Below, in pieces: positions 61,402 to 62,118 of a stretch of 64,000 bases of DNA (position 1 is the first letter of the stretch; the number at the start of each line of letters is the position of its first letter). The position numbers and the translations under genes were made by a program. The notes under the pieces were generated by a model, which was not told the DNA's origin, searched no databases, and saw only the letters and a list, made by a program, of their open reading frames with translations. The stretch is from Escherichia coli (lineage in GTDB: Bacteria > Pseudomonadota > Gammaproteobacteria > Enterobacterales > Enterobacteriaceae), in the NCBI RefSeq assembly GCF_003790525.1, contig NZ_CP033635.1; one strand, 5' to 3'.

Positions 61402-62118
61402 ATGACCCTTGATTTACCTCGCCGCTTCCCCTGGCCGACGTTACTTTCGGTCTGCATTCATGGTGCTGTTGTGGCGGGTTTGATCTATACCTCGGTACAT
61501 CAGGTTATTGAACTACCTGCGCCCGCGCAGCCGATTTCTGTCACGATGGTTGCGCCAGCGGATCTCGAACCGCCACAAGCCGTTCAACCACCACCGGAGC
61601 CGGTGGTAGAGCCAGAACCGGAACCTGAGCCGATCCCTGAACCGCCAAAAGAAGCTCCGGTGGTCATTGAAAAGCCGAAGCCGAAACCTAAGCCAAAACC
61701 GAAGCCGGTGAAAAAGGTGGAGCAGCCAAAACGCGATGTCAAACCCGTAGAGTCGCGTCCGGCATCACCGTTTGAAAATACGGCACCCGCGCGCCCGACA
61801 TCAAGTACGGCAACGGCTGCAACCAGCAAGCCGGTTACCAGTGTGGCTTCAGGACCACGCGCATTAAGCCGTAATCAGCCGCAGTATCCGGCACGAGCAC
61901 AGGCATTGCGCATTGAAGGGCAGGTTAAAGTTAAATTTGATGTCACGCCAGATGGTCGCGTGGATAACGTACAAATCCTCTCAGCCAAGCCTGCGAACAT
62001 GTTTGAGCGTGAAGTGAAAAATGCGATGCGCAGATGGCGTTATGAGCCGGGTAAGCCAGGCAGTGGGATTGTGGTGAATATCCTGTTTAAAATTAACGGC
62101 ACTACCGAAATTCAGTAA
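61402..62118 (+). CDS. tonB: Energy transducer TonB
   Basis: ORF track 61351..62118; trimmed to [26 protein letters not shown]; (EP)n/(KP)n proline-rich spacer; 238 aa. Confidence 0.9.

Follow-up and report, generated by a model that had tools for sequence, protein, structure and literature searches.

We found that the tonB gene in the 64,000-nucleotide stretch of Escherichia coli DNA analysed here (the window) is one codon shorter than its K-12 counterpart, and that the missing codon lies outside the short-period repeat encoding the (EP)n/(KP)n spacer of the TonB protein. This is a normal chromosomal tonB; the gene and the allele are already known, and the allele is common. We put at roughly 90% the probability that the window carries an ordinary tonB of an E. 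coli of the SMS-3-5 lineage, with an inherited and likely neutral 3-bp deletion of the codon for Gln107 (K-12 numbering) that does not stem from slippage in the EP/KP repeat.

The tonB coding sequence occupies positions 61402..62118 on the plus strand (717 bp; 238 codons and a stop). It is present in the list of open reading frames and is annotated in RefSeq as tonB, with WP_024175796.1 as its product. The protein matches the Pfam families PF16031 (TonB_N, the polyproline region; 131.3 bits against a cut-off of 33) and PF03544 (TonB_C; 72 bits against a cut-off of 24.6). It also matches the NCBIfam equivalog NF008083 with 532 bits against a cut-off of 448, residues 1-238 falling on profile positions 1-239. 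Among PDB entries the best match is 9ddo, which is E. coli TonB in full length (E = 1e-147), and the gene order around the window tonB, yciI-tonB-yciA-yciB-yciC, is that of K-12. The gene is 100% identical to the tonB of E. coli SMS-3-5 (NC_010498.1). The final 20 kb of the window is likewise 100% identical to the SMS-3-5 record, save for one 1,336-bp IS3-family element, indicating that the window derives from an E. coli of the SMS-3-5 lineage.

The IS3-family element of the SMS-3-5 RefSeq record is absent from the window, where its site lies at about 56,983-56,989; strains 2D, 702/18, GN03551 and GN03139 are colinear with the window at this site. An island of about 5 kb (about 55,900-60,850) separates kch from yciI in the window and is absent from K-12, where kch adjoins yciI. 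The island contains an integrase Arm-domain fragment, IS3 remnants, an ORF with a tail-fibre domain, a DinI-like gene, a gene of the LTA-synthase family and a frameshifted gene for an SOS-response-associated peptidase.

The flanks of tonB carry candidate regulatory signals. A promoter scan found a sigma-70-like site (TTGAAT-18-TAAAAT) at 61334..61363 on the plus strand. It is overlapped by a Fur-box-like sequence, GAATATGATTGCTATTTGC, at 61336..61354, which matches the Fur consensus at 12 of 19 positions; tonB is regulated by Fur. Between the convergent tonB and yciA genes lies a terminator-like hairpin with a 14-bp stem (62125..62156, assigned to neither strand), which the scan reported on the minus strand only. 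On the plus strand, the stem is followed by ATTACTCA, with no T run. We take this hairpin to be the known bidirectional tonB terminator, which Postle and Good reportedly described in 1985.

The protein has the expected parts. Its N-terminal membrane anchor, as read from the translation, covers about residues 12-32 (61435..61497, plus strand). The four residues of the SHLS motif that defines the TonB signal anchor (S16, H20, L27 and S31; PMC12204202) are all found in the window TonB, and position 28 is I, not L. This L28I substitution (codon 61483-61485) adjoins L27 of the motif and, among the sequences read, occurs only in the window/SMS-3-5 allele. The D-box, the ExbD-binding strand of residues 43-54 (PMC10907165), was placed at 61528..61563 on the plus strand by protein alignment with K-12. 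Its alternation of hydrophobic and hydrophilic residues is preserved, as are the prolines on either side, and its sole change from K-12 is T51A. Almost every other E. coli or outgroup sequence read has Ala51 (codon 61552-61554), so the K-12 peptide in the ExbD:D-box crystal structures (PMC10907165) carries a minority residue. The C-terminal domain (61846..62115, plus strand), recognised by Pfam and by matches to PDB chains including 1u07, 2gsk and 1ihr, has the same protein sequence as in K-12. Besides lacking Gln107, the window TonB differs from the K-12 protein by the substitutions L28I, T51A and L133P (K-12 numbering). Both T51 and L133 of K-12 are minority states in the sequences read, most of which have P at position 133.

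The initial annotation set the 238 residues deduced here against 239 for K-12, and this figure proved accurate: the tonB of K-12 MG1655 (b1252, NP_415768.1) is 720 bp long and encodes 239 aa. We aligned the window, K-12 and a third tonB allele as DNA and as protein. The window and K-12 proteins are the same neither in length nor in sequence, so the earlier observation stands, and their pairwise alignment reveals a real difference of one residue, located outside the repeat. The sole gap relative to K-12 is of 3 nt at window 61718-61720, aligned as GT[ACA]GGAG; DNA and protein alignments, together with the junction probes described below, place the site of the deletion at 61717..61722 on the plus strand. 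K-12 reads AAG GTA CAG GAG CAG at this point, whereas the window reads AAG GTG GAG CAG. In the K-12 segment KPVKKVQEQPKRD (KPVKKV[Q]EQPKRD), Gln107 is the residue absent from the window TonB, and it is because this codon is absent that the protein has 238 rather than 239 aa.

We determined how frequent the codon-less allele is in E. coli by means of a 40-nt probe spanning the window junction, searched against 5,426 complete genomes (blastn, word size 11). The junction was found in 1,158 of the 5,423 tonB-bearing records (21%), exactly in 1,157 and with a single mismatch in one. The codon is present in 4,265 of these records (79%), where the alignment has a 3-nt gap and the record 43 nt. Megablast junction probes gave 1,157 genomes without the codon and 3,928 with it; the 337 genomes that these probes could not classify, owing to a central mismatch that prevents seeding by a 28-mer, were resolved by the word-11 search. 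Carriers of the codon-less allele include O25b:H4-ST131, JJ1887, O18:H1 and APEC O2:K1:H4 strains. The codon-containing probe matched K-12 derivatives and O157:H7, O91 and O139:H1 strains; BL21 and O26:H11 strains have a 720-bp tonB, and hence the codon. Judging from the named strains, the codon-less allele presumably tracks phylogroups B2 and F. A literature search for reports of repeat or indel alleles of E. coli tonB gave nothing relevant.

Some records in these searches were unusual in other respects. Matches to tonB lay on plasmid-labelled records in 13 places and were absent altogether from 4 of the 5,426 genomes. In E. coli XL1-Blue (NZ_CP132550.1, 3164-4560), the 3' end of tonB is interrupted by an IS4-like ISVsa5 (IS10-type) transposase; the gene is annotated with a product of 233 aa, and the 3' remnant as a partial hypothetical protein.

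The polarity of the difference was read from outgroups, which were sampled by scanning species-representative genomes with the degenerate pattern FPWPTLLSV(C/G)IHG (38 loci). GTG CAG GAR CAG (V-Q-E-Q) is found in E. albertii, E. whittamii, Escherichia sp. E1V33 and two divergent representatives labelled 'E. coli'. Citrobacter species have V-Q/E/V-E-Q, and Salmonella arizonae and diarizonae have V-E-E-Q. Since a residue is kept at this position in other Escherichia, Citrobacter and Salmonella, its presence is ancestral to Escherichia, and the window state is a derived deletion. Kluyvera, Kosakonia and Pluralibacter have KK[V/I]EQPK without the extra residue, so at deeper levels the shorter form either recurs or is the older one. 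These three genera would also suit the opposite polarity, under which the window length is ancestral and the K-12 state arose by insertion of CAG, through duplication in CAG GAG CAG, a sequence that does hold a CAG direct repeat. We regard this as improbable, given that a residue is present here in every other Escherichia species sampled as well as in the two neighbouring outgroups named above, and that nearly four fifths of the E. coli records have the codon. Moreover, such an insertion would need to be older than the genus, and the window state would still be a secondary loss. A separate observation concerns Kluyvera genomosp. 3 YDC799 (CP022114.1, about 6624-7090), whose tonB reads as frameshifted after about residue 140, with a product of 154 aa; either the gene is a pseudogene or the assembly is in error.

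As to the derived deletion, comparison with K-12 (GTA CAG) alone would suggest a loss of ACA, but GTG CAG in the outgroups widens the choice. With GTG in the outgroups against GTA in K-12, the event may have been a loss of CAG or GCA, or a loss of ACA. On the sequences compared, loss of CAG or GCA from GTG CAG GAG and loss of ACA from GTA CAG GAG are equally parsimonious, and the former history includes a separate synonymous G-to-A change in the K-12-type lineage. A probe for GTG CAG GAG CAG with E. coli flanks matched none of the complete E. coli genomes. We infer a single origin for the loss of Gln107: a simple 3-bp deletion would have arisen once, or a few times, in a sub-lineage of E. coli and would then have been passed on by vertical inheritance.

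TonB couples the proton-driven ExbB-ExbD motor to outer-membrane transporters; the ExbD dimer binds the D-box, and the polyproline-II region is described as a rigid link that crosses the periplasm (PMC10907165; PMC12204202). TonB is anchored in the inner membrane and gripped by ExbD via the D-box, and its stiff, oppositely charged (EP)n/(KP)n polyproline-II segments, together with the disordered linker, bring the C-terminal domain to the Ton box of the transporters. Residues 70-102 are the proline-rich region, and residues 103-149 are unstructured by NMR (PMC3005593). Deletion of 66-100 or of 70-102 had no effect unless the periplasm was expanded, and deletion of 103-149 left near-full colicin sensitivity but 14% of the rate of ferrichrome transport (PMC3005593). 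Gln107 lies within the unstructured linker, just after the KP segment. The loss of a single residue from this linker and the fixation of the allele in TonB-iron-dependent lineages suggest that the deletion is most likely selectively neutral, an assessment drawn from the position of the residue and from the published deletions.

An adaptive loss, tuning the reach or the charge pattern of the linker in extraintestinal pathogenic lineages, would accord with the fixation of the allele in the successful clones ST131, O18:H1 and APEC O2:K1. Linker rigidity and length are also said to matter for force transduction, in a statement cited in PMC10907165. However, only one residue is affected, in a region that is disordered (PMC3005593), and even TonB without the whole of 103-149 keeps its colicin sensitivity almost in full, though not its rate of ferrichrome transport. 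The distribution of the allele, too, looks like plain vertical inheritance. We therefore consider adaptation very unlikely and retain a neutral loss of Gln107.

The deletion has a practical consequence. In about one fifth of E. coli genomes, those of ST131 and other extraintestinal pathogens among them, K-12 TonB numbering is off by one after residue 106. This offset matters when K-12 mutational or structural data (Q160, Y163 and the C-terminal domain) are placed on clinical strains.

The initial annotation had located the proline-rich spacer within 61560-61730 and implied slippage in its short-period DNA repeat as the cause of the shorter protein. The spacer is indeed there, its peptide being encoded at 61609..61710, but the cause does not hold. 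The acidic half of the spacer, (EP)4-IP-EP (residues 70-81), is encoded at 61609..61644 on the plus strand by GAG CCA GAA CCG GAA CCT GAG CCG ATC CCT GAA CCG, and the alignments give the same number of units as in K-12. The basic half, (KP)6 (residues 91-102), was found by Tandem Repeats Finder and by the alignments at 61672..61707 on the plus strand; its codons, AAG CCG AAG CCG AAA CCT AAG CCA AAA CCG AAG CCG, are the same in K-12. Over the whole spacer (61609..61707), the window and K-12 differ by only two synonymous changes, CCT/CCC at P79 and GCT/GCA at A85, both located between the EP and KP arrays. Alternating synonymous codons make the DNA repeat degenerate: GAG/GAA pair with CCA/CCG/CCT in the acidic half, and AAG/AAA with CCG/CCT/CCA in the basic half. 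Tandem Repeats Finder reported the KP array with a period of 6, 6 copies, 76% matches and a score of 44, and gave no report for the EP array at a score of at least 30. The longest perfect period-6 tract in the spacer is 14 nt.

The gap that removes Gln107 sits between VKKV and EQ, where there is no repeat context. The last KP codon is 11-12 bp upstream of it, and its flanks share no more than 1 nt of homology. The 3 bp of the gap amount to half of a 6-bp repeat unit. A variant made by slippage would differ inside the array and by whole units, and would be accompanied by a long perfect tract and by frequent length polymorphism in close relatives; the window allele displays neither pair of properties. 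Replication slippage within the EP/KP hexanucleotide repeat as the origin of the 238 rather than 239 aa is ruled out by the direct alignment and is hardly tenable, even though the array does vary in length elsewhere, both within E. coli, as described below, and across genera (2-5 EP units and 4-8 KP units in the Enterobacteriaceae sequences read). Slippage would have played no part in the window allele, in which the number of units is unchanged, and a lead suggested by the short-period repeat of this gene can thus be closed as false: the repeat has not slipped. A sequencing or assembly error in one genome was rejected as practically impossible, the same junction being common to 1,157 independent complete genomes.

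The initial annotation also mentioned a reverse-frame ORF mirroring the repeat, and an antisense ORF of 81 aa is present in the ORF list at 61584..61829 on the minus strand. This ORF has no Pfam match at E<=1 and no RefSeq annotation, and we rejected it as a gene. We regard it as an artefact that the repeat generates, since complementing GAR-CCN and AAR-CCN codons gives a frame free of stops.

We also surveyed the length of the array in the 5,423 tonB-bearing records, using a 105-bp query that spans the EP and KP arrays. The canonical length of 105 bp is found in about 97.7% of the records, the window among them. An identity of 90-95%, which a 6-bp indel should produce, was found in a further 122 records, and coverage was below 80% in 5. 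A (KP)7 query matched 118 records at 99% identity or more, indicating that nearly all length variants are one allele, of 241 aa (WP_001306569.1). This (KP)7 allele exists in at least two DNA forms, one with AAG CCG three times (strain 7/2) and the other with a duplication of AAA CCG (strain A10). A (KP)2 allele of 231 aa (WP_001429584.1) is found in one strain (7_33_46A) and has a 24-bp deletion between copies of AAGCCG. Both alleles plausibly arose by slippage or by recombination between repeat copies. A genuine difference in unit number is also seen in the sister species, since the TonB of E. albertii NBRC 107761 has (EP)3 against (EP)4 in E. coli. In practice, then, the repeat is only weakly slippage-prone, and the survey gives a rough idea of how seldom natural arrays change in length: about 2% of complete genomes are affected, most of them by the one (KP)7 allele. 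That the loss of Gln107, (KP)7 (about 2% of genomes) and the rare (KP)2 are functional rather than neutral variants seems to us a very slim prospect. If they were, spacer alleles could tune the reach or stiffness with which TonB spans the periplasm, for instance when the latter expands osmotically, and could alter susceptibility to TonB-dependent colicins and phages.

These natural alleles are among the closest parallels to the window allele. Like it, (KP)7 and (KP)2 occur naturally in the same gene and alter the length of the periplasmic spacer in frame; unlike it, they change the number of AAR-CCN units, whereas the window variant leaves the repeat untouched. The engineered deletions of 66-100, 70-102 and 103-149 from the Postle laboratory (PMC3005593) resemble the window allele in shortening the spacer or linker in frame. 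All three retain activity, which is partial for 103-149. Engineered TonB deletions were reportedly also described by Larsen et al. in 1993. The engineered deletions remove 33-47 residues and were made in the laboratory, whereas the window carries a natural deletion of one residue that is fixed in a lineage. In all other respects the window TonB is built like that of K-12, with the anchor and its SHLS residues, the D-box, (EP)4-IPEP, (KP)6, the disordered linker and the C-terminal domain, and the two genes are 96.9% identical at the DNA level.
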